DNA from: a virus
Taxonomy: Duplodnaviria; Heunggongvirae; Uroviricota; Caudoviricetes
Strand: one strand, 5' to 3'
Length of the DNA: 32,589 nt
Virus record (IMG/VR): IMGVR_UViG_3300037466_003234
A program made the position numbers and the translations under genes. The notes under the pieces were generated by a model. That model did not search any database. It worked only from the letters and a program-made list of their open reading frames with translations, and was not told the DNA's origin. Below are positions 465-32,589 of the stretch, piece after piece (position 1 is the stretch's first letter; each line of letters begins with the position of its first letter).

Positions 465-494
465 TTGCCTTAAATCCTTATCTTGATATATCCT
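465..494 (+). promoter_or_regulatory. Putative promoter for the oxygenase operon (TTGCCT-N18-TATCCT; contains TGATATA at 484-490)
   Basis: AT-rich divergent intergenic region. The TATTTTC(C)TTATTGCCTTAAWTYCWTATCT block recurs at about 26614-26642. Confidence 0.45.
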
Positions 495-7225: not shown

Positions 7226-7245
7226 TATATATCATTGCCCTTATT
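7226..7245 (-). promoter_or_regulatory. AATAAGG-GC-AATGATATATA element upstream of portal
   Basis: Near-identical copy AATAAGGTTCAATGATATATA at 14124-14144 upstream of the sigma gene. Confidence 0.6.
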
Positions 7246-7621
7246 CGGCGGATGCGATGAAAACGGTAATAGAGTCAGTTGTGCTAGGATTTGCGATAAC
7301 CAAGGAATTAACGTCGCCACCCATAAGGAAGTGGCCAGGCTTGGTGGAGGTGTTAATTACGTATGGCTTAATGCTGATAGCGGAGCCATTGACGGTCAAA
7401 TTGGCCTGGAGGTCAGATTCCACGTAGAGGAACTTCTTTTGTGCGCCGGTAAATACGGTTGCAGAGCCGTTCGCTGGGATCGTTAAAACCTGGCTCGAAG
7501 GGTTGGAAACCTGGAGTCCGTCGATCTCGCGGGACCACTTAAAATTGCTCAAGGCAGGGCTATTGCTGCCCTTTGGATCCGAGTAACTACTTAAAAACAC
7601 TAGCAAATTCATGAATGCCAT
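7241..7621 (-). CDS. Beta-rich hypothetical protein, possibly virion structural
   Basis: 126 aa, GAGG SD, S/T/N/V-rich alternating beta pattern, immediately upstream of portal. Confidence 0.7.
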   Translation of the reverse strand: MAFMNLLVFLSSYSDPKGSNSPALSNFKWSREIDGLQVSNPSSQVLTIPANGSATVFTGAQKKFLYVESDLQANLTVNGSAISIKPYVINTSTKPGHFLMGGDVNSLVIANPSTTDSITVFIASAE

Positions 7622-7771
7622 GGAAAATTAAACCTCTTTTAGTATGCGCCTTCATTAAGATTAGGCCTAGAGAGGGAGGATTTTAGTCGGGCAGCTATTG
7701 AATTTTGTTGAATAATTAACATTACCCCCTCAAGCTGTCAGGGAACCTAAGTTGACTATCGAAGGAATCTG

Positions 7772-8517: not shown

Positions 8518-10461
8518 TTAAAAATTCCAGTGAAAGCCGCCCTTACGGCCATTTCCGCCCTGCTGAGTCTCATTACCGCCTTGTAAAGCATTCGAGATCT
8601 CTTGGCGCATCTGATTCTGATGCTGGAGGCGCTTAGCAAGCTCTTCTCTGCCTTCTGGAGTCGATCCATCGATTGGTTTGCCATCTGGACCTGTCCAAGT
8701 AACTCCGGGCTTCTGAGGGCCTTTAACAGGGAACATGTTTTGACCGATATAGCGCATGGCGTCGGCAGGGTCGGCAATACCAGGAGTATCGTCTGGCTCA
8801 AGCGTAGGATTACCCGCACCATCGAGCTTAAAGTGATGCTTAACGAAGGCATTAATGGCTTTCATGCCGTTTTCCGTATAGAGAACCTTAAGCCAGCGGC
8901 GTCCGCCACCGTCAACGATCTTAGAACGCAAGGCTTCGATACCACCCATCACGTCTTTGGTAAAAGAAGGCGATTTCATGCCATTTTTATTGAAAGACTT
9001 GATATGTGATGGCATAGCTTGGTCACACCACCATTTTTCGATCTTATACTTGTCGCGGTAGTTAATGGCGATAGCAAGCATGTCTTGGAATTCAAGGCCT
9101 GGAGCCATGTAAAGGTCCACAACCCAGATTTCACCGTTAGGGATCATGGCGAAAACGACAATGACGAAATCGTGGGTATAACCCCAGTCAACTCCGGCGT
9201 AGAATCTAATGCCAAGAGTTTGCATGACATGGAGTAGGTCGATTTCTGAGACCTTCTTTTTAAGCTGAATGCCAAGCTCGCGAGCGGTCTTTTCCATCTC
9301 CTCGCCACCAAGGAGCGTGGTCATGGCCTTTTCGAGCGTAATAACGTTAGTATTGAGCTTATCGTCTTTACTGACGGTCGAATCAAAGCGAGGATAGACG
9401 AGACCCTTACTGGAAGGCTTCCAGCACATAAGCTGGGCTTCACCCATGTCAGGATTGGTCTTACGGAAGGTGTTGATAACAGCCTTAATTGGCTTATAAA
9501 GACCGCCTGTAGCCTCTGGAGGCCTATCTGCAAGGCGTGTTCTACATACGCCAAGGAGAGGGCATGTGACGCAGCCGCCGTGAGCCGTGATCTTTTCCCA
9601 TTTCGTCTTTTCAGCCTCAGGAAGCTCATCAAACTCTTCTTGGCTAAGTGACTTAGGAGGGAGGGCCTTGGTAATATAGCGTTCTTCTTTAGGTAGCTCT
9701 GGCTTATGGCGCTCTGGAGGGCAGCGCTCGGTAACGTCAATGATGTTCCAGCGAACGATCTTGTCACCAGCGATAGGAGCCTTGTCGATCTCCTGCTGCA
9801 TCAAACCGAACGAGAACTTACGAGTGGAGAGCTTAACGGTAAGAGGATGGCGGCCTTTAGCGTAACCCGGAATGAGCTTAGCTTCTTCATACGCCATTGG
9901 ATCTTTAACAACGTCAATCTCGTCAACGAACATAAGCGTGGTATGCTCGGAGTTAGCTCCGCCGAGCGTACACACGATGACGCGAATATAAACGTCGTCG
10001 CCGTTAGGAGTACGGAATTCGATCTTACCCTTATTTTGGGAGGTATTCACCCAGCCCGCAGTCTCCATGAGAGGGGCAAGCTTATTGAAGAAAAGGTTGA
10101 TATACTGAATGGCCTTAGCGGATTGTGATTGAATAGCGGCCATGTGGGCGATCGTCACTTCGAAGTGAAGCATGAGGAGAGCTTCAAGAATCGAGGCGCC
10201 CAAGGTCTTATAGCACTCACGAGCCGAGAGCATGATGTAGCCTGGGATCTCGTCTGCGGTGTTATCTTTGATGGTCTTATAGATCTCCCACATCGCATCG
10301 ATTGGGGAGGCGTTTGAGTCTGGATCTACCGTTCCGATAGGCATATCCAGACCCAAGAAAAACATTACCCAGTCCTTAAGCTCCTGGGGGGAGTTTAGGG
10401 GTTGAAATAAGAGCTTTGCTAGCTCCTGTTTCTTATTGTCGGGTAACTCCTTAAAATTCAT
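8518..10461 (-). CDS. terL: Terminase large subunit
   Basis: Walker A variant SARECYKT, Walker B LMFVDEID, RNase H-like nuclease FYAGVDWGY and C-terminal ADPADAMRY. Confidence 0.9.
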   Translation of the reverse strand: MNFKELPDNKKQELAKLLFQPLNSPQELKDWVMFFLGLDMPIGTVDPDSNASPIDAMWEIYKTIKDNTADEIPGYIMLSARECYKTLGASILEALLMLHFEVTIAHMAAIQSQSAKAIQYINLFFNKLAPLMETAGWVNTSQNKGKIEFRTPNGDDVYIRVIVCTLGGANSEHTTLMFVDEIDVVKDPMAYEEAKLIPGYAKGRHPLTVKLSTRKFSFGLMQQEIDKAPIAGDKIVRWNIIDVTERCPPERHKPELPKEERYITKALPPKSLSQEEFDELPEAEKTKWEKITAHGGCVTCPLLGVCRTRLADRPPEATGGLYKPIKAVINTFRKTNPDMGEAQLMCWKPSSKGLVYPRFDSTVSKDDKLNTNVITLEKAMTTLLGGEEMEKTARELGIQLKKKVSEIDLLHVMQTLGIRFYAGVDWGYTHDFVIVVFAMIPNGEIWVVDLYMAPGLEFQDMLAIAINYRDKYKIEKWWCDQAMPSHIKSFNKNGMKSPSFTKDVMGGIEALRSKIVDGGGRRWLKVLYTENGMKAINAFVKHHFKLDGAGNPTLEPDDTPGIADPADAMRYIGQNMFPVKGPQKPGVTWTGPDGKPIDGSTPEGREELAKRLQHQNQMRQEISNALQGGNETQQGGNGRKGGFHWNF

Positions 10462-10467
10462 ATAATT

Positions 10468-10683
10468 TTAAGATTGCTCTTCGCTAATAACGATATCCCC
10501 GATAAGCTCTAAGGTAACTTTTGCGAATCCTCGACTTGGAATTTCTAGCTTATAATTAGTCACCAAAGGAATTTTAACGCCATTTACATAAACGGTCGCG
10601 CCCATTCCGGTCAAAATTTTACCCTTATGAGCTTTCTTTTTTCTAACTTCAATAGTAGGGATTTTTTGCTTTTCTAATTTCAT
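10468..10683 (-). CDS. Small hypothetical protein (AT-rich)
   Basis: 71 aa between GroEL and TerL; basic N-terminus then beta-strands (ATVYVNGVKIPLVTNYKLEI). Confidence 0.7.
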   Translation of the reverse strand: MKLEKQKIPTIEVRKKKAHKGKILTGMGATVYVNGVKIPLVTNYKLEIPSRGFAKVTLELIGDIVISEEQS

Positions 10684-12535: not shown

Positions 12536-12573
12536 TCAGTATTTTCTCCCTTTACTAAATTCTTATTTTTCTT

Positions 12574-12597
12574 ATATCACAGACAAAAACGTGATAT
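12574..12597. repeat. Inverted repeat ATATCAC-N10-GTGATAT in the divergent groEL/helicase promoter region
   Basis: Perfect 7-bp arms at 12574-12580 and 12591-12597. Confidence 0.8.
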
Positions 12598-14128: not shown

Positions 14129-14144
14129 GGTTCAATGATATATA

Positions 14145-14168: not shown

Positions 14169-15203
14169 ATGCAAAAGCAAAAAAGACCAGAAGGTTTCGA
14201 CGATAGCTTCTATAAGCTAGCAGCGGCAGTCACGCGAACCCTTGAGCGCAATAAAGACGGTACCCTCCAGCCAGAGCAGGTCGAAGAGCTTTTGGACGCT
14301 GAACGCAAGTTTAAGGAGACGATCCTTAAATACAGACAAGCTACTGAAATTTATAAAAAATTTCTTCAGAAGGTTTGCATCCAAAACAAGAACATCCTCT
14401 CTGCTCGCCCCTATTTCCGTGAAGCTGCGACCTCTTTTAGCAAAAAGATCACGCCTGCTATCAAGAACGAAGACATCGAAGCCTTAAAGACGTTTAGTAT
14501 CAATTTTCAGTTTATTAAATTCATTAAAGAAAACTGGCTAGGCCCCTTCCCAAAGCGTGCTGAGCAACTTTACGACCGCGTTAATTTGGCCAGAAATAAG
14601 CTCATCGAAAATAACATGCCTTTGGCGATCAATCGAGCAAAGCTTTTCTACCGTAAGGTACCAAAAAGCCACCTTACGCTCATGGACTTTATCCAGATCT
14701 GCTCGATGGGCCTTGCCGCAGGTATCGATAAGTGGTGCGCCCCTAAGTATTCCCCAGTATTCCGCTCAGTTTGCATCGGTCGCATGGTCGGAAACATGAT
14801 CGATAGCTATTCTGAGACCACGCTTCATTTCTACCCCTCAGACCGCCGTATTCTCTATAAGGCCAATTCCATACGTGGCCGCAGGGGCATTGACGATATC
14901 GAAGAATTAACACGCGCCGTTAACGAAAGCTTTAAGCAAGACGCCAAAGAAGGCAAGTCAATCCCTAAGGATAACATCACGGTAAGCGAGCTTTCCTCTC
15001 TTATGAATGCCGCTTCCATGATGAGCGCTGACGCTACGGTTAACGAAGAGGGGTATGGCGTTTACCATTACACCCAAGATACGAATCAAGACATCGAAGG
15101 ATCGTTAATTGAGCGCGAAGCCACCAACAAGATGTTAATTCTTGCAAAAAATCTTCCAATGCTCCACAGAAAAGTGTTGCGTTTGAAGGGTATTAAGATT
15201 TAA
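14169..15203 (+). CDS. sigma70-family RNA polymerase sigma factor lacking region 4.2
   Basis: Region 2: ARNKLIENNMPLAINRAK...LMDFIQICSMGLAAGIDKW...VFRSV; ends NLPMLHRKVLRLKGIKI*, matching region 4.1. Confidence 0.85.
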   Translation: MQKQKRPEGFDDSFYKLAAAVTRTLERNKDGTLQPEQVEELLDAERKFKETILKYRQATEIYKKFLQKVCIQNKNILSARPYFREAATSFSKKITPAIKNEDIEALKTFSINFQFIKFIKENWLGPFPKRAEQLYDRVNLARNKLIENNMPLAINRAKLFYRKVPKSHLTLMDFIQICSMGLAAGIDKWCAPKYSPVFRSVCIGRMVGNMIDSYSETTLHFYPSDRRILYKANSIRGRRGIDDIEELTRAVNESFKQDAKEGKSIPKDNITVSELSSLMNAASMMSADATVNEEGYGVYHYTQDTNQDIEGSLIEREATNKMLILAKNLPMLHRKVLRLKGIKI

Positions 15204-17285: not shown

Positions 17286-18024
17286 GTTTCCTACACTACC
17301 TGGAGAAAAAGAGGTCGAGGTCGTAGAGCCTACGACTGATATTACGGCTGCAGACCTCGTTAAGATCCAGAAATATGTGGATTCGGGCTACCCAGGCCTT
17401 GCTGGCCTCACTGACGCACAGCTTCAACGCGCCTTGGACCTCTACCTTTCTGGTAAGACCTACCATCAGATCTCAAGGATTATGCGCCTTGAGCGTCCGT
17501 TAATTCTTTATCTATCCCATAAGTTTAACTGGTTCCCACTTCGCAGAGAAGTCCTATCCGAGATGGAGCATAACATTCGCGGAAGAGTGATTGAAGCGAA
17601 GCTTGAAAGCCAAGATTTCCTACTTAAATTAACACATGCCTGGCAGAAGAAGATCGGCGATAAGGTCGAGGAATACCTTCGCACAGGTGATGTGGCGCAT
17701 GCCAATGCTATCGACCTGAAAGAGGTCGATAAGTATTTGAAGACGGTTGAGATGCTTCTGAAGATGTCAGACGCCAAACCGGCAGGCAAAGGCGCCGATA
17801 AGGCTCCCACGGTTGGGTTGAACCTTGGAGACGGCGGAGTGACCGTCAAGAAGGTTAATGACAATGAAGTCGAGATTACGCCAAATAATGCGGCGAAGTC
17901 TCTATTGAGCCAAATGGCTAATTTTAGACGTGAACAAGATCGTCTCAAAGGCAGCCAAAGTAGCTCAAATTCATCTGATATAAAGAATTCAACCCAAGGA
18001 GAAAGCGATAATGAGAAAAAATAA
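17272..18024 (+). CDS. HTH-containing protein (possible terminase small subunit or regulator)
   Basis: LTDAQLQRALDLYLSGKTYHQISRIMRLERPLILYLSHKFNW is HTH-like, followed by helical and C-terminal beta segments. Confidence 0.65.
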   Translation: MSDNKFPTLPGEKEVEVVEPTTDITAADLVKIQKYVDSGYPGLAGLTDAQLQRALDLYLSGKTYHQISRIMRLERPLILYLSHKFNWFPLRREVLSEMEHNIRGRVIEAKLESQDFLLKLTHAWQKKIGDKVEEYLRTGDVAHANAIDLKEVDKYLKTVEMLLKMSDAKPAGKGADKAPTVGLNLGDGGVTVKKVNDNEVEITPNNAAKSLLSQMANFRREQDRLKGSQSSSNSSDIKNSTQGESDNEKK

Positions 18025-23117: not shown

Positions 23118-24078
23118 GAACATTTGGGGCGACGAGTCGCCTTACAACGATACCCTGGAATACGATTCTACTACTGGATCTTTCGTAGAGCCTGAGCAGG
23201 GTTATATTCCTCCAAGTCCACCAAGGCAGCAACGCCCTCAGGCACCTGTCCAGCAATCTCGTTTCGATCTCCCTCCTAAGCAGGAAGCTCAGATGCTTAA
23301 TGAAGTGCTGCAGGATCTTGGCGAAGAAGACGAAGATGATTCAGCGGTCCTTTCGGACGCAGCACTACGCCTTGAACAGGGTCGTCTCTTTCAGATGATC
23401 ATGAGCCACGACATCTTCCAAGGTATGGATGCAGATCCTCGTGCAGTGAGAAACGTTCAGCGCCAGATCCGCAAATTTGCTCGCGAGTCGATGGAAGTAA
23501 TGCTCGGCATGCGTCAATCAAATGTCGCTCAGACACCAGCCCCGCAAGTAGCCTCTCCATTTAACGAAATGGAAGTCCAGGCGCTCAAGATGCTTGCGGC
23601 TAAGGTTACTGGCGGAAAGAGTGAGCAGCCTCAAGCTCAGATAGCGCCTAAAGCTCCTGCAAAGAAGGAAATTACACCTATCACCGGCTCTACTAAGGCC
23701 GCGCAGACGCTAGCACCTATCGCCCCTAAACCGCAGGCTCCAAAGCCTCAACCACAGCCTCAGAAGCCGCTTCAAAGTAAGCCTGTAGCCCCTATACAAA
23801 GACAGGCCCCTGCGACGCCGCAAGAGGCTGCTATGGCAGAAATTAACGCTGTCATGGATGGAAAGCTCACTAAGAAGATTGAAGAAATGACCTCTGACGA
23901 GCTTTTGGAACATAATAGAAAGATTTCTGAAAGGCAGGCTGCACGTAAAGCAAAAGCTACAAACGCATTGCCAATGCCATCTGCTTATCAGGAAGAAATG
24001 CTGCATACGGAAAGGGTGGCCAACGCTGCACCTGCGGTATCGGCAATCGTAGCTGCCTTGAATCAAAACAAGAAGTGA
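23110..24078 (+). CDS. Pro/Gln-rich, largely disordered hypothetical protein
   Basis: 322 aa with host-like codon usage; coupled to ruvC. Confidence 0.75.
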   Translation: MSENIWGDESPYNDTLEYDSTTGSFVEPEQGYIPPSPPRQQRPQAPVQQSRFDLPPKQEAQMLNEVLQDLGEEDEDDSAVLSDAALRLEQGRLFQMIMSHDIFQGMDADPRAVRNVQRQIRKFARESMEVMLGMRQSNVAQTPAPQVASPFNEMEVQALKMLAAKVTGGKSEQPQAQIAPKAPAKKEITPITGSTKAAQTLAPIAPKPQAPKPQPQPQKPLQSKPVAPIQRQAPATPQEAAMAEINAVMDGKLTKKIEEMTSDELLEHNRKISERQAARKAKATNALPMPSAYQEEMLHTERVANAAPAVSAIVAALNQNKK

Positions 24079-24103
24079 TATAACCACTTAAGGAGAAATG
24101 AAA

Positions 24104-24664: not shown

Positions 24665-24688
24665 TTAACGCCTAGTAGAAACAGAATC

Positions 24689-24770
24689 TTAAGAGATGTA
24701 GGTGCCTGCGCAGATCGGGGTCGGCAGGCCGTAAGCAAAGCGTTCGCAACGTGAGGCCTACCTCTCTTAA
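24689..24770. ncRNA. Candidate structured RNA (multi-stem), strand unknown
   Basis: TTAAGAGA-T-GTAGGT pairs with GCCTAC-C-TCTCTTAA; inner stems GCCTGC/GCAGGC and GCGTT-CGC-AACGT; GC-rich island in an AT-rich intergenic gap. Confidence 0.6.
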
Positions 24771-24793
24771 TTAACAAGGGATTGGTTTATCGT

Positions 24794-26002
24794 ATGGTTG
24801 AGAAGTTCACAGATATCGAATTAGCGTTCATTACCTCACTCAAAGAAGAAGCTGCTTTGGAGTGGGCCGATATTACCGAGAGATATAATAAAAAGTTTAA
24901 GAAAGACAGAAGCCTTGAGTCCGTCAAGAAAGGCTACCAACGTAATCGCGACCGCGTTAATACGCCGGACGGATTCGTTAAGTTGATGAGCGATACCGCT
25001 CGTACTCGTAAGGCTAACGGCGCTAATGCTCGTGACCTTAAGACCGTACTTGAAGCTTGGGAAAACCGCGAAGACATCTTGGACGCCATCAAGGCAGCCT
25101 CAAAAGGCATCGCTAAGGTCACCGTAAAGCCCGTAAAATTGCCTAAGCCGAGCAAAAATCGTAAGGGTATGACCCTAGAGCTTCTCATCTCGGACGTTCA
25201 CGTTGGAAAGCTCACCAGCAGCTTTAACCATGAAGTCTTGAAGCGCCGCCTAAAGCAGGTCTCCGATACGGTTGTTAAGGAAATTCAACGCGCTCACCGT
25301 GACTATAAAGTGGAAAAGATCATCATCGCTATGCTTGGCGACATGATCGAATCGGCCACCATGCACGGCCCAGAAAGCGCCAAGGGTTGTGAATTCGGCA
25401 ACTCTCGCCAGATCGAAGAGTGCCAAAAACAGCTTTTCCACCTCCTTTTGCTCCCTATCTTTGGGATCGCAAAGCAAATTAACGCTCAAGTCGATTGTAT
25501 CGGTGTTCCAGGCAACCATGACCGCACCGAAGAGCATCGCACGATGAGCAATCCGGGCGAACACAATGTAACCTGGATCATTTACAATTCCCTAAAAGAA
25601 TTCACCTCTTTGGCAGGATTCAAGAACGTTAATTGGTTCATTCCAGTAGACCCTTATCATCTCCATGATATTTATGGGGAAGGAGTGCTTTATGAGCACT
25701 ATGATAATGTAAAGGGTAGTAACCAACGTGCAGGAATTGAACACTTGCTATCAAGAAGAATTAACCAGTTAAAGAAACCGATCGTATTTATCCGTGGCGG
25801 CCACTTCCATGAACCACAAGAAGCCGGCATTGGTAAAATCGTAATTAACGGTAACGTTCCTGGTAACGATGGATTTAGTACAACCCTAGGTTTTGATTGC
25901 GAACCCTCTCAAACCCTTAATTTCTATATCGAAAGAGAGAAGACGGACTCTATTAAGAGACAAACAAGCTTTTATAAGAGATTCCTAATCCAGCTCGATT
26001 AA
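24794..26002 (+). CDS. Calcineurin-like metallophosphoesterase with N-terminal Myb/HTH-like domain
   Basis: ISDVHVG, LGDMIE, PGNHDR, YEHYD, GGHFHE; N-terminal FTDIEL...EWADITERYNKKFKKDRSLESVKK. Confidence 0.8.
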   Translation: MVEKFTDIELAFITSLKEEAALEWADITERYNKKFKKDRSLESVKKGYQRNRDRVNTPDGFVKLMSDTARTRKANGANARDLKTVLEAWENREDILDAIKAASKGIAKVTVKPVKLPKPSKNRKGMTLELLISDVHVGKLTSSFNHEVLKRRLKQVSDTVVKEIQRAHRDYKVEKIIIAMLGDMIESATMHGPESAKGCEFGNSRQIEECQKQLFHLLLLPIFGIAKQINAQVDCIGVPGNHDRTEEHRTMSNPGEHNVTWIIYNSLKEFTSLAGFKNVNWFIPVDPYHLHDIYGEGVLYEHYDNVKGSNQRAGIEHLLSRRINQLKKPIVFIRGGHFHEPQEAGIGKIVINGNVPGNDGFSTTLGFDCEPSQTLNFYIEREKTDSIKRQTSFYKRFLIQLD

Positions 26003-26009
26003 TTGTGGA

Positions 26010-26399
26010 GTGGACGTGAGCAGGCAACAAGAGTTAGACAGACTAGATAGAGCGATCAAAGATGCAGACATGAGGCTCAAGTCGATTAAGAACAGTCTGG
26101 AAGTGATTGATAAGGAAATTAATCAATTAACTGCCTTAGAATCAGATCTTGAACAGAACTTAGCGATTTTAAAGAAAAGACGAATTACTGTATTGGCTAC
26201 CGAATATCGCAAAGCTAGGCAGGAATTGGAGCGATCCAAGGCTAAGCTAGCGATGTTAAAGGTTAATCGTAATAACGCCCAGTCTGCTCTTGAAGAGATG
26301 GAAAAGTTTCTTGCTCAGTCCAAAGAGAACTACGCAAAGATCCTTAAAGAAGCCAGTAACAATGTCCTTAAGGGCAAGTTTGGGAAAAAAGATGGCTGA
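26010..26399 (+). CDS. Coiled-coil hypothetical protein
   Basis: GGAG SD, GTG start, continuous heptads. Confidence 0.7.
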   Translation: MDVSRQQELDRLDRAIKDADMRLKSIKNSLEVIDKEINQLTALESDLEQNLAILKKRRITVLATEYRKARQELERSKAKLAMLKVNRNNAQSALEEMEKFLAQSKENYAKILKEASNNVLKGKFGKKDG

Positions 26400-26610
26400 T
26401 AAAGAAGATCTCCAAAAAAGAGTCAGGGAAGAAGAGGACTACATCCGTTGCTCTAAGTTCTCGAATTCCTTGACCAAATTCGTAGCAAAGAACTCTGAAG
26501 GCGTGGACGATTCCACGATCGCCCGCCTTCTTCTTATGGAAGAATCAGAAGTTACTAGGATCTATCAAGAGGCTGTCGTCCAGCTTCGCGAAGGATTGTC
26601 TGAAGAGTAA
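26392..26610 (+). CDS. Stand-alone sigma70 region 4.2-like HTH protein, 72 aa
   Basis: True start ATG 26392; IARLLLMEESEVTRIYQEAVVQLR aligns ungapped with RpoD VGKQFDVTRERIRQIEAKALRKLR. Confidence 0.65.
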   Translation: MADKEDLQKRVREEEDYIRCSKFSNSLTKFVAKNSEGVDDSTIARLLLMEESEVTRIYQEAVVQLREGLSEE

Positions 26611-26652: not shown

Positions 26653-26664
26653 GGAGATATGAAA
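26633..26664 (+). promoter_or_regulatory. 12-bp hairpin sequestering the rnhA start codon
   Basis: TTTCATATCTCC-(TGCAATAT)-GGAGATATGAAA, perfect pairing. Confidence 0.8.
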
Positions 26665-27306
26665 ATTGAGGTCTTTACTGATGGGTCAGCTACGGTTCCA
26701 ACAAAGCCAGGCGGATGGGCATACGTCCTAGTAATTGACGATGAGAAGCACGCAGAGTGCTCTGGACATGCCGAAGGCGCATCTAATAACGATATGGAGC
26801 TTGAGGCTGCCATTCAAGGACTTGCCGCAGCGCTTAACTACATCGTTGACAACAATGGTCTAGGCACTTTCGCCTCTCTCACTCCCCCCAAGGTTTATCT
26901 CTGCTCGGACAGTCAACTCGTTCTCGGCTGGGCTGATGGCACTTATAGATTCAAACAGCCTCAAGAGGAAAAGAAGGCTAAATATAAAACCCTGGTCGAA
27001 CTGGTAAGACGTATGAAGGTGGAGACCAAATGGATCAAGGGTCATTCGGGCCACGAGCATAATGAGCGCTGCGATAAGCTCGCCAACGAAGCTCGTACAG
27101 GCATTACTAAGAAGAATGAAATGGACGAGGCCAAAGCTCGGGGAGAGACGTTAATTGGCACCAAGAAGTCCGGCACCATGTGCGTTTGGTATAAAGGCAA
27201 GCTTAAGGTTGTCGATCTTGAAACCAATATTGTTGAGGACTTCAAGCGCGAAGTTCACGGCAATCGCGGCAGTATGCTCGAAATCAGAGAGGAGAAATCC
27301 AGATGA
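26659..27306 (+). CDS. rnhA: Ribonuclease HI with C-terminal extension
   Basis: VFTDGS, NNDMELEA, CSDSQL, WIKGHSGHEHNERCDKLA. Confidence 0.95.
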   Translation: MKIEVFTDGSATVPTKPGGWAYVLVIDDEKHAECSGHAEGASNNDMELEAAIQGLAAALNYIVDNNGLGTFASLTPPKVYLCSDSQLVLGWADGTYRFKQPQEEKKAKYKTLVELVRRMKVETKWIKGHSGHEHNERCDKLANEARTGITKKNEMDEAKARGETLIGTKKSGTMCVWYKGKLKVVDLETNIVEDFKREVHGNRGSMLEIREEKSR

Positions 27307-29137: not shown

Positions 29138-29316
29138 AAGTCTATCATGTTTATCTTGATAATCAGCGAGAGCCGCATGATTTTGGCCTCTTCTCTACGG
29201 AGGAGAAGGTGCTAGACTTCTTGAGAAGCGTGTGCGCTCCTACTAAGCCCACCTACTCTGGATGGCGCGTCACTCACTACGGTGACTTTATCGTTAAAGA
29301 GGTAGAAGTAAAATGA
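29134..29316 (+). CDS. Small hypothetical protein
   Basis: GGAG SD; ATGA overlap with dnaE. Confidence 0.7.
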   Translation: MKVYHVYLDNQREPHDFGLFSTEEKVLDFLRSVCAPTKPTYSGWRVTHYGDFIVKEVEVK

Positions 29317-32300
29317 TCGTTAGTCCACATTGCCATGCAGAATCGCCGCTAACTGGATCTACCCTTGCCAATCTCGTTAAGAGAGCTAAGGATCTCGGTC
29401 GCACTCACTTCGCCTACACCGACCATGGACATCTGTCGTCGGCTCTTAAGGCTTATACTCTTTCTAAGAAGGCTGGATTGAAGTTCATTCCAGGCCTTGA
29501 AATCTATTTCAAAGACAATAAGTGCCCAATCACCGCCGGAACCAAGGTGGATCGCTGCAAATACTTTACAGCTACGCTCTATTGCCAAGATCAAGAGGCG
29601 TATCAAGAGCTTTGCAAAATCGTAAGTCGCACCGACTTTCCTACGATCGATATTTATGAAGAAAAGCAGCAGGTTTGGGGCTGGGAAGATCTTGAGAGAA
29701 TTGCTAAATTTAATACTCAGATCGTTCTGAGCGGCGTCCATTGCATGGTGGGCAAAACCATGCTCGCGGGATGCCCTGATCTTGGTGAAATGATCTTTAC
29801 GCACCTAAAGAGCATCTTCAAGGATCGCATGTCGGTAGCACTTCTTTGCGAGCCATGGACTAAAAAATATAGCCAAATCGTGGAGGTCATTTCTGGCGAC
29901 CAAAGTATTACGGTACTTGCGTCGGACATCGTTTCTACCGATAAGGCACGTAAGATCAAGGCTATGGACCTTGTTGAGAAGGATCATCACTCCTTCCTAA
30001 AGTCTACCTACAGCAATAATTGCTATAACGAATACAACCTTCCGATCGAAAAGGTGAAGCTTCATAAGGGCTTTCTGCCACTTCCTGGCGGAGACGCTTC
30101 TTTGAAAGTTAACAAGTTCCTGAAGGCGCTTGCAAGTAAGCATGGAGTTAGCGTTCTAGCGACGGACTACGCCTACTATGCAGCCAAGGAAGATAAGATC
30201 GTTCAGACCATGCGTCTGGAAGGAAATAATAAGCTTCAGCCAAACCTTCACATGAAGACCAGGGACGAGATGCTCGACTATCTCTGTGGCCCTATGGGCA
30301 TTGGCCCTGCACAGGCAGAGTTAATTCTTGCCAACACCGACGCTTGGGCATCCAAGTTCGACGGACTTACTTTGAAGTACGACTGGCGCTTGGCCGATAC
30401 AGGGGAGAATCCTCTGAATCAGGTCATGGATATCATCAAACAAAACGGTCGTATGAGATGGGATGACCCTAAGTACGTGGATCGTTTGCGCGAAGAACTT
30501 AACGTTATTGCTAAAAACGGCATTTACGATCTGACCGGCTACTTCCTGCCAATTCGCGATGTCCTCAATTTCTATAAGGAAAACGGATTCTTGACAGGCC
30601 CAGGTCGTGGTTCCGCAGGCGGCGCCCTTCTTTGCTATTTGCTTGGAATTACGCAAATCGATCCTTTTGATTACGATCTTCCGTTCCAGCGCTTCTTTTC
30701 GATGGTTCGTATTAAGCAAAGGAAGCTTCCCGACATCGACGTGGACTTGGAAGACCGCGTCCCTCTAGTCGGCGAGGATGGCCATTCTGGCTATCTTTAC
30801 GGTAGGTACAAAGATAAGGCTGCTCAGATCTCTACGCGCACCACGATCCGCCTTAAATCGGCTATCCTTGACACCAATCGTTATTTTAAGGGTAAGGTCG
30901 AGGAGGAAGTCGCTACCTTCTCTAAAGGCCTCCCAGCGCCTCCTCAAGGCATCAACGATATCAATTTCGTCTTCGGATATGATGACGACGAAGGCCATCA
31001 CGTTCCAGGCCTGATCGAGCTTTCTACCGAGCTTCAGAACTATGCTGAAGAACGCAAGGAAGAGTGGGAGATCGTTAGTCAGGCCATGGGTTTGACTCGC
31101 GCCTTCTCTAAGCACGCCTCAGCATTCGTTCTCTCGGACGTGCCGATTCAAGACGTGGTTCCTACCAAAGATGGGAACGTTGCTCAGTATGAGGCTAAGG
31201 AGTGCGAAGCCGCAGGCCTGATTAAGTACGACTTCCTCGTTATTAAGCAGCTGAAGGATATTCGCGTTTGCCTCGATATTATCAATAAGAAAAATGGGGA
31301 AAAGAATACTGTAGGCTATTTTAACCACAAAGGTAAAAACACCTACGTTTGGAAGCTTCCGCAAGACGACGAAGTCTATAGAAGCATTTGGACCGGACAG
31401 ACTGAAACTTGCTTCCAAATTAACACGAGGTCGATGATTCCATTCGTTATCGACATGTTGCCTGAAAACATGATGGATCTTGCGACCCTCCTCGCCCTTG
31501 TTCGCCCAGGTCCGATGGACTTCATCGATCCTCATTCTGGTCGCAACATGGTCGAAGAATACATGCTTCGTCGCCGTGGAGAGGCTCAGCCTGACATTCA
31601 GGAGCTTGCCGATCTCTTGCCATCGACCTTTGGCATTATCGCCTTTCAGGAGCAGTTAAACATCATCGCTCGTGACCTCGCCGGAATGTCTGCAGAAGAC
31701 GCAGAAGTTCTCCGCGAAAACATGGCGAAAAAGAAGATGGTTGACCTCATGAAGATGAAGCCTATGTTCATGGCAGGCGCCAAGAATAAGGTTTCTGAAG
31801 AAATTGCCGAAGGTATCTGGGAGCGAATGGTCACCTTCGGTCGTTACGGTTTCTCGGTTATTCACGCCGTGGAATACGCCCATGTGACGTTTGCCTGCAT
31901 GTTCTTAAAACACCACTATCCACTAGAGTGGTGGGCAGCGATCCTCACCAATGCGGATGAGAAAGAAATCACCGGCAAGTTCTGGCCATACGTCAAGGAT
32001 ATGGTGCTCCCTCCAGATATTAACTTGTCTGGCGACACCATGGTCGTTGACTATGACAACCAAAAGATTCGCGCAAAGCTCGGCATCGTTCGCGGTATGG
32101 GCGAGGCAACAATCGAGCCTATCGTGTCTGGTCGTCCATATAAAGACATCCAAGACTTCGTCAATAAGGAAGTTGCCGGTCCAGCATTGACCTGTAAGCT
32201 CATCCACGTAGGGATCTTGGATAGCCTTTTCCCTGGCAAAAAGACTCTTCAAGAGAAGCTTAAGGCCTACGCTGACGCCGTGGAAATTAAGGCCTACAAC

Positions 32301-32589
32301 GACAAGGTTGAAGAAGCCGCAAAGAAGGGTAAGAAGCCAAGAGCTACGCAGCCTAAAGATGGTCAGATCCCAGAAGGTTATCTGAATCTGCATCCTCTCA
32401 AAGACGCAGCTATGAGAAAGTCGGTCTTGCCAAGCATGCCGATCGATCTCTACGCCCTAGGCGCCCAATATTCCAAGGTTTTGGCCCCATTGTCTGGAAG
32501 GGCAAAGGCAGTCGTTATCAGTAATCGCGGCCATGAAACTCCTCTTATTAGGGGAGCGCAGCTTCAGCGCCTAGACGAGGTGGAAGGTG
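29313..32589 (+). CDS. dnaE: DNA polymerase III alpha subunit (C-family), 3'-partial; missed by ORF track
   Basis: ATG 29313, open to the window end (at least 1092 codons): PHP start PHCHAES...YTDHG...GLEIY; PGRGSAGG; KLPDIDVD; SKHASAFV; LIKYDFL; RPGPM; FQEQ; GRYGFSVIHAVEY. Confidence 0.97.
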   Translation, partial: MIVSPHCHAESPLTGSTLANLVKRAKDLGRTHFAYTDHGHLSSALKAYTLSKKAGLKFIPGLEIYFKDNKCPITAGTKVDRCKYFTATLYCQDQEAYQELCKIVSRTDFPTIDIYEEKQQVWGWEDLERIAKFNTQIVLSGVHCMVGKTMLAGCPDLGEMIFTHLKSIFKDRMSVALLCEPWTKKYSQIVEVISGDQSITVLASDIVSTDKARKIKAMDLVEKDHHSFLKSTYSNNCYNEYNLPIEKVKLHKGFLPLPGGDASLKVNKFLKALASKHGVSVLATDYAYYAAKEDKIVQTMRLEGNNKLQPNLHMKTRDEMLDYLCGPMGIGPAQAELILANTDAWASKFDGLTLKYDWRLADTGENPLNQVMDIIKQNGRMRWDDPKYVDRLREELNVIAKNGIYDLTGYFLPIRDVLNFYKENGFLTGPGRGSAGGALLCYLLGITQIDPFDYDLPFQRFFSMVRIKQRKLPDIDVDLEDRVPLVGEDGHSGYLYGRYKDKAAQISTRTTIRLKSAILDTNRYFKGKVEEEVATFSKGLPAPPQGINDINFVFGYDDDEGHHVPGLIELSTELQNYAEERKEEWEIVSQAMGLTRAFSKHASAFVLSDVPIQDVVPTKDGNVAQYEAKECEAAGLIKYDFLVIKQLKDIRVCLDIINKKNGEKNTVGYFNHKGKNTYVWKLPQDDEVYRSIWTGQTETCFQINTRSMIPFVIDMLPENMMDLATLLALVRPGPMDFIDPHSGRNMVEEYMLRRRGEAQPDIQELADLLPSTFGIIAFQEQLNIIARDLAGMSAEDAEVLRENMAKKKMVDLMKMKPMFMAGAKNKVSEEIAEGIWERMVTFGRYGFSVIHAVEYAHVTFACMFLKHHYPLEWWAAILTNADEKEITGKFWPYVKDMVLPPDINLSGDTMVVDYDNQKIRAKLGIVRGMGEATIEPIVSGRPYKDIQDFVNKEVAGPALTCKLIHVGILDSLFPGKKTLQEKLKAYADAVEIKAYNDKVEEAAKKGKKPRATQPKDGQIPEGYLNLHPLKDAAMRKSVLPSMPIDLYALGAQYSKVLAPLSGRAKAVVISNRGHETPLIRGAQLQRLDEVEG

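Follow-up and report, generated by a model that had tools for sequence, protein, structure and literature searches.

The phage gene at 14169–15203 (+) of the window, the whole stretch of 32,589 nucleotides of viral DNA analysed here, encodes a real sigma factor of the sigma70 family, which keeps regions 2, 3, 3.2 and 4.1 and stops before the first helix of the 4.2 helix-turn-helix. The truncation is natural and is a fixed trait of the family. A second gene, at 26392–26610 (+), encodes an acidic 72-aa protein (P0272) that resembles region 4.2 and is a candidate for the second half of the sigma factor. Our leading reading, held with middling confidence, is that the sigma factor is split inside domain 4 and that the small protein would be its second half. 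We put forward more tentatively a specific form of this arrangement: in a large family of Mx1-like phages one chain would comprise regions 2 to 4.1, the 72-aa chain would be an acidified 4.2 helix-turn-helix, and the two would be reassembled on the beta-flap, giving a holoenzyme that does no -35 reading and is dedicated to AATCTTWA promoters.

The sigma gene is an open reading frame of 344 codons (P0001). Residues 1–130 (14169–14558) form a family-specific N-terminal part, seen in the family alignment and as helices in the AF2 model; this conserved helical extension carries the motifs ARPYFRE and INYxF and is absent from the sigma models used. It is followed by the equivalent of regions 1.2/2 (residues ~131–215, 14559–14813; profile alignments), which contains PLAINRA and GL..GIDK, and by region 3 with the 3.2 linker (residues ~216–308, 14814–15092), in which HFYPSD+R.LY+AN is conserved and the linker has low pLDDT. 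Region 4.1 (15093–15200) consists of helices 309–326 and 331–339 with the conserved residues L329, K335 and G341, and then come GIKI and the stop.

Single-sequence searches are too weak to recognise this protein, so family profiles were needed: a Pfam search with P0001 found no sigma domain, phmmer with the single sequence found nothing in the PDB, and Pfam gave a sub-threshold region 2 match on the Mx1 homologue. The family profile (A1, 106 diverse members) matched primary sigma factors in the PDB with E 6e-11, and its positions 138–340 correspond to E. coli RpoD 370–563, where the alignment stops at ...AREAKVLRMRF. For FliA, a query with the E. coli protein returned only sequences more than 90% identical, and we therefore used a diverse set of 31 sequences drawn from 81 Pseudomonadota genomes; hhalign of A1 against this alignment (P 4e-9) places sigma residues 141–340 on FliA 12–200 of 239. 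In two relatives, the NCBIfam sigma models all stop 36–45 positions short of the model end (TIGR02937 at 128–129/165, FliA_WhiG at 186/224, SigBFG at 189/227). The PHROG scan (E <= 1) gave a sole and weak match, phrog_351 'RNA polymerase sigma factor' (E 4e-5, residues 135–189). The AF2 model has a mean pLDDT of 92, with a low-pLDDT linker at residues 281–310 before the two helices of region 4.1, and Foldseek with this model returned primary sigma factors. Domain mapping, which the earlier note had suggested, thus finds regions 2, 3, 3.2 and 4.1 through family profiles and does not find 4.2, while single-sequence Pfam on P0001 calls none of them.

The C-terminus reads ...LAKNLPMLHRKVLRLKGIKI, then TAA, and lies three residues past KVLRLKG and its G341, the counterpart of KVLRMRF at residues 557–563 of E. 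coli sigma70. Within region 4.1, L..hrKVLRLKG aligns with LTAREAKVLRMRF of sigma70 and LPEREKLVLTLY of FliA. The earlier note had claimed that the protein ends after region 4.1 with no -35-reading helix; the RpoD and FliA profiles, the NCBIfam stops and the AF2 model agree on this, and the absence of the 4.2 helix-turn-helix is confirmed. The RpoD register in that note was one residue out, since HMMER pairs K335-V336-L337 with sigma70 K557-V558-L559, and the conclusion is unchanged. Further upstream, in residues 194–210 (14748–14798), the HMMER alignment sets F198, V201, C202, R205 and N209 against RpoD Y430, W433, W434, Q437 and R441. The sigma70 tryptophan pair W433/W434 wedges the -12 base pair, and its absence from the phage sigma would fit a -10 element other than TATAAT.

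The start codon of the candidate partner falls within the end of the preceding gene (26010–26399). At E <= 1 its family comprises 411 proteins, and the 120 matches listed are 66–89 aa long. The AF2 model has helices at 3–15, 26–33, 40–46 and 51–70, and the last two, with pLDDT above 90, form a helix-turn-helix. The relation to region 4.2 emerges from profile comparison. With a profile of 30 sequences (A4), the best three matches among the 177,635 sequences of the PDB all fall in WhiG/sigma28 region 4.2, at non-significant E-values of 0.11–0.3, and hhalign against the FliA alignment gives P 3.3e-5 with a score of 34.4, where the best of 40 column shuffles reaches 18.8 and the reversed profile 10.4. 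In this alignment, residues 34–71 correspond to FliA 201–238, and the FliA coverage of the two phage proteins abuts, the sigma taking 12–200 and the small protein 201–238. Among the 100 ESM-Atlas clusters nearest to the 72-aa protein, 73 are small viral proteins, with PF04545 common among them, and region-4 fragments recur in the AFDB cluster matches to its model, one of them at 0.9 A rmsd over 36 residues, with non-significant E-values.

Other searches with the small protein were empty. Pfam found no family for the single P0272 sequence at E <= 10 and no precomputed Pfam domain is present in the 120 homologues listed; the PHROG (E <= 1) and NCBIfam scans had no match, the gp33 family being among the PHROGs. 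Foldseek (PDB, AFDB) and VIA-align with the model gave nothing significant, with sigma region-4 and other helix-turn-helix entries recurring. Because the single-sequence scans are empty and the Foldseek and VIA-align matches are non-significant, the protein could be a generic helix-turn-helix. Considering the profile alignments, we regard it as a remote homologue of region 4.2. Of what the earlier note had proposed for this gene, remote homology to the missing segment and presence in 16/16 near-complete relatives stand behind the candidacy, and the role of partner is what we infer.

The recognition helix of the small protein differs from that of sigma70 in its charge. Positions 51, 52, 53 and 55, which correspond to sigma70 R584, E585, R586 and R588, are glutamate in 23/30, 22/30, 25/30 and 15/30 sequences, the consensus helix start is (S/T)EEEVE, and the median net charge of the family is -5.5 (30 sequences). 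The basic and polar DNA contacts of sigma70 (R584, E585, R586, R588, Q589) are missing from this helix. Judged from charge alone, it is unlikely that the small protein reads DNA; because its recognition helix is acidic, the system still has no plausible -35 reader when the small protein is included. The two C-terminal ends read …LKGIKI in the sigma and …REGLSEE in the small protein, and neither obviously looks like a clamp-binding tail. The modelled helix 26–33 may duplicate the 4.1 helix that the sigma already has, instead of complementing it.

The two genes occur together. Sigma-bearing records were collected with a 16-sequence alignment (sigma identity to the query 36–100%), and 20 of these 21 viral records carry exactly one copy of the small gene, among them all 16 that are at least 90% complete; the sole record without it is a fragment (57% complete). 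Of the 50,697 deposited phage records, Myxococcus phage Mx1 is the only one that the sigma and the small protein each match, and the source phage is a relative of Mx1. The Mx1 sigma (WNM70309.1) has 335 aa and is annotated as 'putative RNA polymerase sigma factor', and the helicase-sigma-phosphoesterase gene order is the same. The small gene of Mx1 is an unannotated 80-aa ORF (L004:4965-5207 (+), that is OR576727.2 about 157455-157697 (-)), with WNM70294.1 on one side and the gene for DNA polymerase III alpha on the other. Here too the gene order matches: phosphatase, coiled-coil protein, small ORF, further genes, DnaE. In the window, a metallophosphatase gene (406 aa) and a gene for a coiled-coil protein of 129 aa precede the small ORF in the same orientation and span 24782–26399 (+). 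An RNase H gene (PF00075) lies 3' of this ORF at 26659–27306 (+), and an open-ended ORF of 1092 aa at 29313–32588 (+) matches the Mx1 DNA polymerase III alpha gene in position; because of these two neighbours, we place the small gene in a replication module, 11 kb from the sigma gene. The joint distribution is what a partnership would predict, yet a core gene of any kind in this clade would show it too.

The genomes also contain a promoter-like motif with no -35 element. Upstream k-mer enrichment was computed from crude ORF calls in three genomes spanning 36–47% GC: G001, a 170,122-bp viral record whose encoded sigma is 100% identical to that of the window, and G009 and G013, whose sigmas are 57% and 49% identical and whose GC contents are 47% and 36%. 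AATCTTWA heads the list of upstream 8-mers in G009 and G013 and is one of the leading few in G001; it has 11–16 sense-strand sites per genome against 0.8–0.9 expected (P 7e-10 to 3e-15), its copies are mostly intergenic, and its end lies at a median of 27 nt from the start codon. Across 47 sites, no position from -45 to -6 exceeds 0.13 bit, so that no conserved -35 element is seen upstream, and the conserved part measures only about 10 bp, (C/G)(C/G)(C/T)AATCTTWA. The motif precedes the orthologous genes for a 2180-aa and an 860-aa protein in 3/3 genomes, together with many other large genes. In Mx1 (GC 55%), CAATCTT or a one-base variant stands 7–45 nt before the portal and tail sheath genes and several neighbouring genes of the structural block, the tail sheath gene having CAATCTA; CAATCTT sites stand, for example, upstream of the portal gene at 8615 and of the gene at 37603. 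In the window, the motif AATCTTAA occurs at 24685–24692 (+), 90 nt before the metallophosphatase gene and also upstream of its G009 and G013 orthologues; at 7655–7662 (-), ~35 nt before the 126-aa gene 7241–7621 (-); and at 10468–10475 (-), just upstream of the 647-aa ORF 8518–10461 (-), which is GroEL-like according to the first reading of the sequence.

A second motif precedes the sigma gene itself. The extended -10-like TGATATA at 14136–14142 (+) is separated from the sigma start codon by 26 nt and is kept upstream of sigma in relatives: in close relatives it often stands 8 nt before the ATG, and distant relatives have TGGTATA. Thirteen upstream regions of G001 contain it, where 0.94 would be expected. 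We considered TGATATA as the promoter that the phage sigma itself would read and find this less likely, given its standard extended -10 look, its changes between lineages (TGGTATA, TGTTATA) and its absence from the first 50 kb of Mx1. AATCTT, unlike TGATATA, is kept throughout the phage family. We infer that the TGnTATA sites are host-type promoters that would turn the sigma gene on, and that AATCTTWA would be the sigma's own single-element promoter; the assignment is made because the motif follows the phage family and not host composition. The link between AATCTTWA and the sigma is by association, and the motif could also be due to a host sigma acting with a phage activator, or to a signal at the RNA level.

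Two observations on TGATATA stand beside this assignment. The window has 8 copies against 2.8 expected, five of them before or between genes, at 484–490 (+), 7228–7234 (-), 12573–12579 (-), 17976–17982 (+) and 24076–24082 (+), and these five are candidate early or middle promoters of the extended -10 type. In many relatives, namely at the loci L006, L007, L018, L025, L027 and L029, TGATATA(T/A) is only 8 nt from the sigma ATG, where the window has a spacing of 26 nt; a transcript started from the 8-nt spacing would be leaderless or nearly so.

We propose the following sequence of events. First, host RNA polymerase would transcribe the sigma gene, probably from the upstream TGATATA. Second, the sigma would steer core polymerase to one-element promoters, (C/T)AATCTTWA with no -35 element, placed ~15–40 nt before structural and other genes; its regions 2, 3, 3.2 and 4.1 would bind core polymerase and read or melt the -10-type element. 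Third, the 72-aa acidic protein would give in trans the two helices that domain 4 lacks, completing the fold on the 4.1 helices of the sigma, on the beta-flap or on both, in the manner of sigma4 and T4 gp33, and would do so without reading DNA. A sigma4-less holoenzyme is described in PMC7948647 as initiating poorly, and on that account the phage sigma would have a reason to need a sigma4 surrogate. In this scheme, the binding of the two proteins to each other or to the flap, and the reading of AATCTTWA by the sigma, are the steps that we deduce from the arrangement of the parts.

Two alternatives to a sigma split inside domain 4 have to be weighed. In the first, which we judge unlikely, the truncated sigma acts alone and the 72-aa protein is an unrelated small helix-turn-helix regulator of the replication module; regions 2 and 3 would then read the single element, and the 4.1 helices would suffice for the beta-flap or be dispensable. 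The AF2 model of the sigma is indeed confident throughout in the absence of a partner, but the poor initiation by a sigma4-less holoenzyme (PMC7948647) speaks against a sigma working in this way. Small viral Sigma70_r4 proteins are common, which favours this alternative; against it, the FliA alignments of these two proteins abut exactly at 200/201. The small gene sits among replication genes at a distance of 11 kb from the sigma gene, although both genes share an identical narrow distribution. Helix 26–33 could make the small protein a self-contained three-helix helix-turn-helix; its acidic recognition helix, however, would be unusual in a DNA-binding regulator.

T4 AsiA and gp33 are precedents for the second alternative, which we consider quite improbable. 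Here the 72-aa protein would be a host shut-off factor, a 4.2 mimic that does not bind DNA and is not a sigma subunit. Its target would be either the beta-flap, for which it would compete with domain 4 of the host sigma, or region 4 of the host sigma itself, so that -35-dependent host promoters would be silenced while the extended -10 (TGATATA) and AATCTTWA promoters of the phage stay on. In favour of this explanation are the sigma4.2-like fold and acidic surface of the protein, the two T4 precedents (PMC2988020 for gp33) and the candidate promoters of the phage, which need no -35, but it leaves unexplained why the piece is exactly what the phage sigma lacks and why both genes are restricted to the same clade. 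Host shut-off would moreover be compatible with a sigma split inside domain 4, since, by analogy, gp33 does both jobs.

An origin of the truncation in pseudogenisation, misassembly or a contig-specific frameshift has next to no probability and is excluded because the sigma end is conserved: nothing favours it save the failure of single-sequence Pfam to call a sigma domain, whereas many studies have yielded sequences with the same end (940 clusters at 90% identity, 405 at 50%), the cultured phage Mx1 shares it, the downstream gene is only 29 nt away, and the helix-turn-helix is absent from all frames. The conservation on which the claim of the earlier note depended is therefore present, and no intact 4.2 was found in these homologous phage sigmas. 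The homologues (940 at 90% clustering, 405 representatives at 50%) align up to their own C-termini, and nearly all have 335–365 aa (341–364 aa among the 120 matches listed of the 940). Fusion of 4.2 onto longer family members was considered and found in none of those checked; the longer relatives inspected still end 3–13 residues past K-x-L-x-L-x-G, and their extra length consists of insertions or inteins elsewhere. The next gene in the window has its own AGGAG and starts 29 nt after the sigma stop. Read-through of the TAA would add merely 20 residues before the next stop, and the other two frames after it contain stops or the next gene, in keeping with the earlier statement that neither read-through nor a shifted frame encodes a 4.2 helix. 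The whole of G001 has no match to Sigma70_r4 (PF04545) at E <= 10; its only match to PF08281 (r4_2), a weak one, is the C-terminal helix-turn-helix of a serine recombinase/resolvase and was rejected as a sigma piece.

To our knowledge, split sigmas are known in a handful of cases (T4, SPO1, SigO-RsoA and Tn916), and the break always lies between whole domains. The T4 late system is a 'split sigma' with sliding-clamp activation, in which gp55 is a minimal sigma2-like protein. T4 gp33 binds the beta-flap at the sigma4 site and recognises no DNA sequence (PMC2988020). The likeness to gp55 and gp33 lies in a phage sigma with no -35 reader, in promoters that in our case are candidates for a single-element class, and in a small acidic partner with no DNA reading of its own (PMC2988020), the partner being a proposed one in our case. 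The phage sigma differs from gp55 in keeping regions 3, 3.2 and 4.1, which gp55 lacks, and the small protein differs from gp33 in resembling sigma region 4.2 in sequence; neither the sigma nor the small protein matches the gp55 or gp33 PHROGs at E <= 1. The promoter-like motif with no -35 element fits the T4 analogy drawn in the earlier note, and the analogy is qualified in that the sigma keeps sigma3, the 3.2 linker and 4.1 and in that the small protein is 4.2-like with no match to the gp33 PHROG. A sigma split inside domain 4, and not a copy of gp55/gp33, would be the closer description.

In B. subtilis SigO-RsoA and Tn916 Sig7-Sig8, sigma functions are described as residing on two polypeptides that act jointly with RNA polymerase (bioRxiv 10.64898/2026.10.01.756105, citing MacLellan 2008). 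Those systems are split between whole domains (sigma2/sigma4) and the pair reads -10 and -35; the phage pair, in contrast, would have its break inside domain 4 (4.1/4.2), with an acidic 4.2 piece and no -35 element seen. SPO1 gp34 and gp33, both of which the same preprint describes as needed for late transcription (bioRxiv 10.64898/2026.10.01.756105), are alike in being two phage polypeptides. Group 3 sigmas (FliA/WhiG, SigB/F/G) give the best full-length profile alignments, with regions 2, 3, 3.2 and 4.1 collinear; compared with them, the phage family has no 4.2, has the conserved 130-aa N-terminal extension and has W433/W434 substituted. Our literature search found no description of this phage sigma family.

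If the leading reading is true, the break would lie inside domain 4 across hundreds of related phage genomes, together with a version of the -35 reader that repels DNA. This would bear on the roles of sigma4 beyond -35 reading, namely flap binding and initiation, and on how phages keep their own transcription apart from that of the host. The phage would gain a second control point in the supply of its small subunit, and other phages that encode small Sigma70_r4 proteins, of which there are many, may be organised in this way too. For the clade as a whole, AATCTTWA is a concrete candidate for the late promoter. The proposal is testable, as Mx1, which has both genes, and Myxococcus xanthus are cultured.

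Several minor observations were made along the way. Four sigma homologues of 589–824 aa (P0177, P0188, P0197, P0245) carry an intein (PF14890, Hint) at the position equivalent to window ~14811–14822, between ...SYS and (S/E)T..HFYP, where regions 2.4 and 3.0 meet; once spliced, they would be sigmas of normal length that also end after 4.1. The serine recombinase gene of G001 (G001:C1:921-1598 (-); PF00239, E 4e-47) lies near one end of the record and is unexpected in a large genome of the lytic myovirus type. The window has 59% of sampled 31-mers in common with G001, the record nearest to it, and the two differ by one or more indels (~148 bp) in the part of the window that precedes the sigma gene; the window is a strain-level variant of G001. 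The window DNA occurs in rhizosphere and soil metagenomes.
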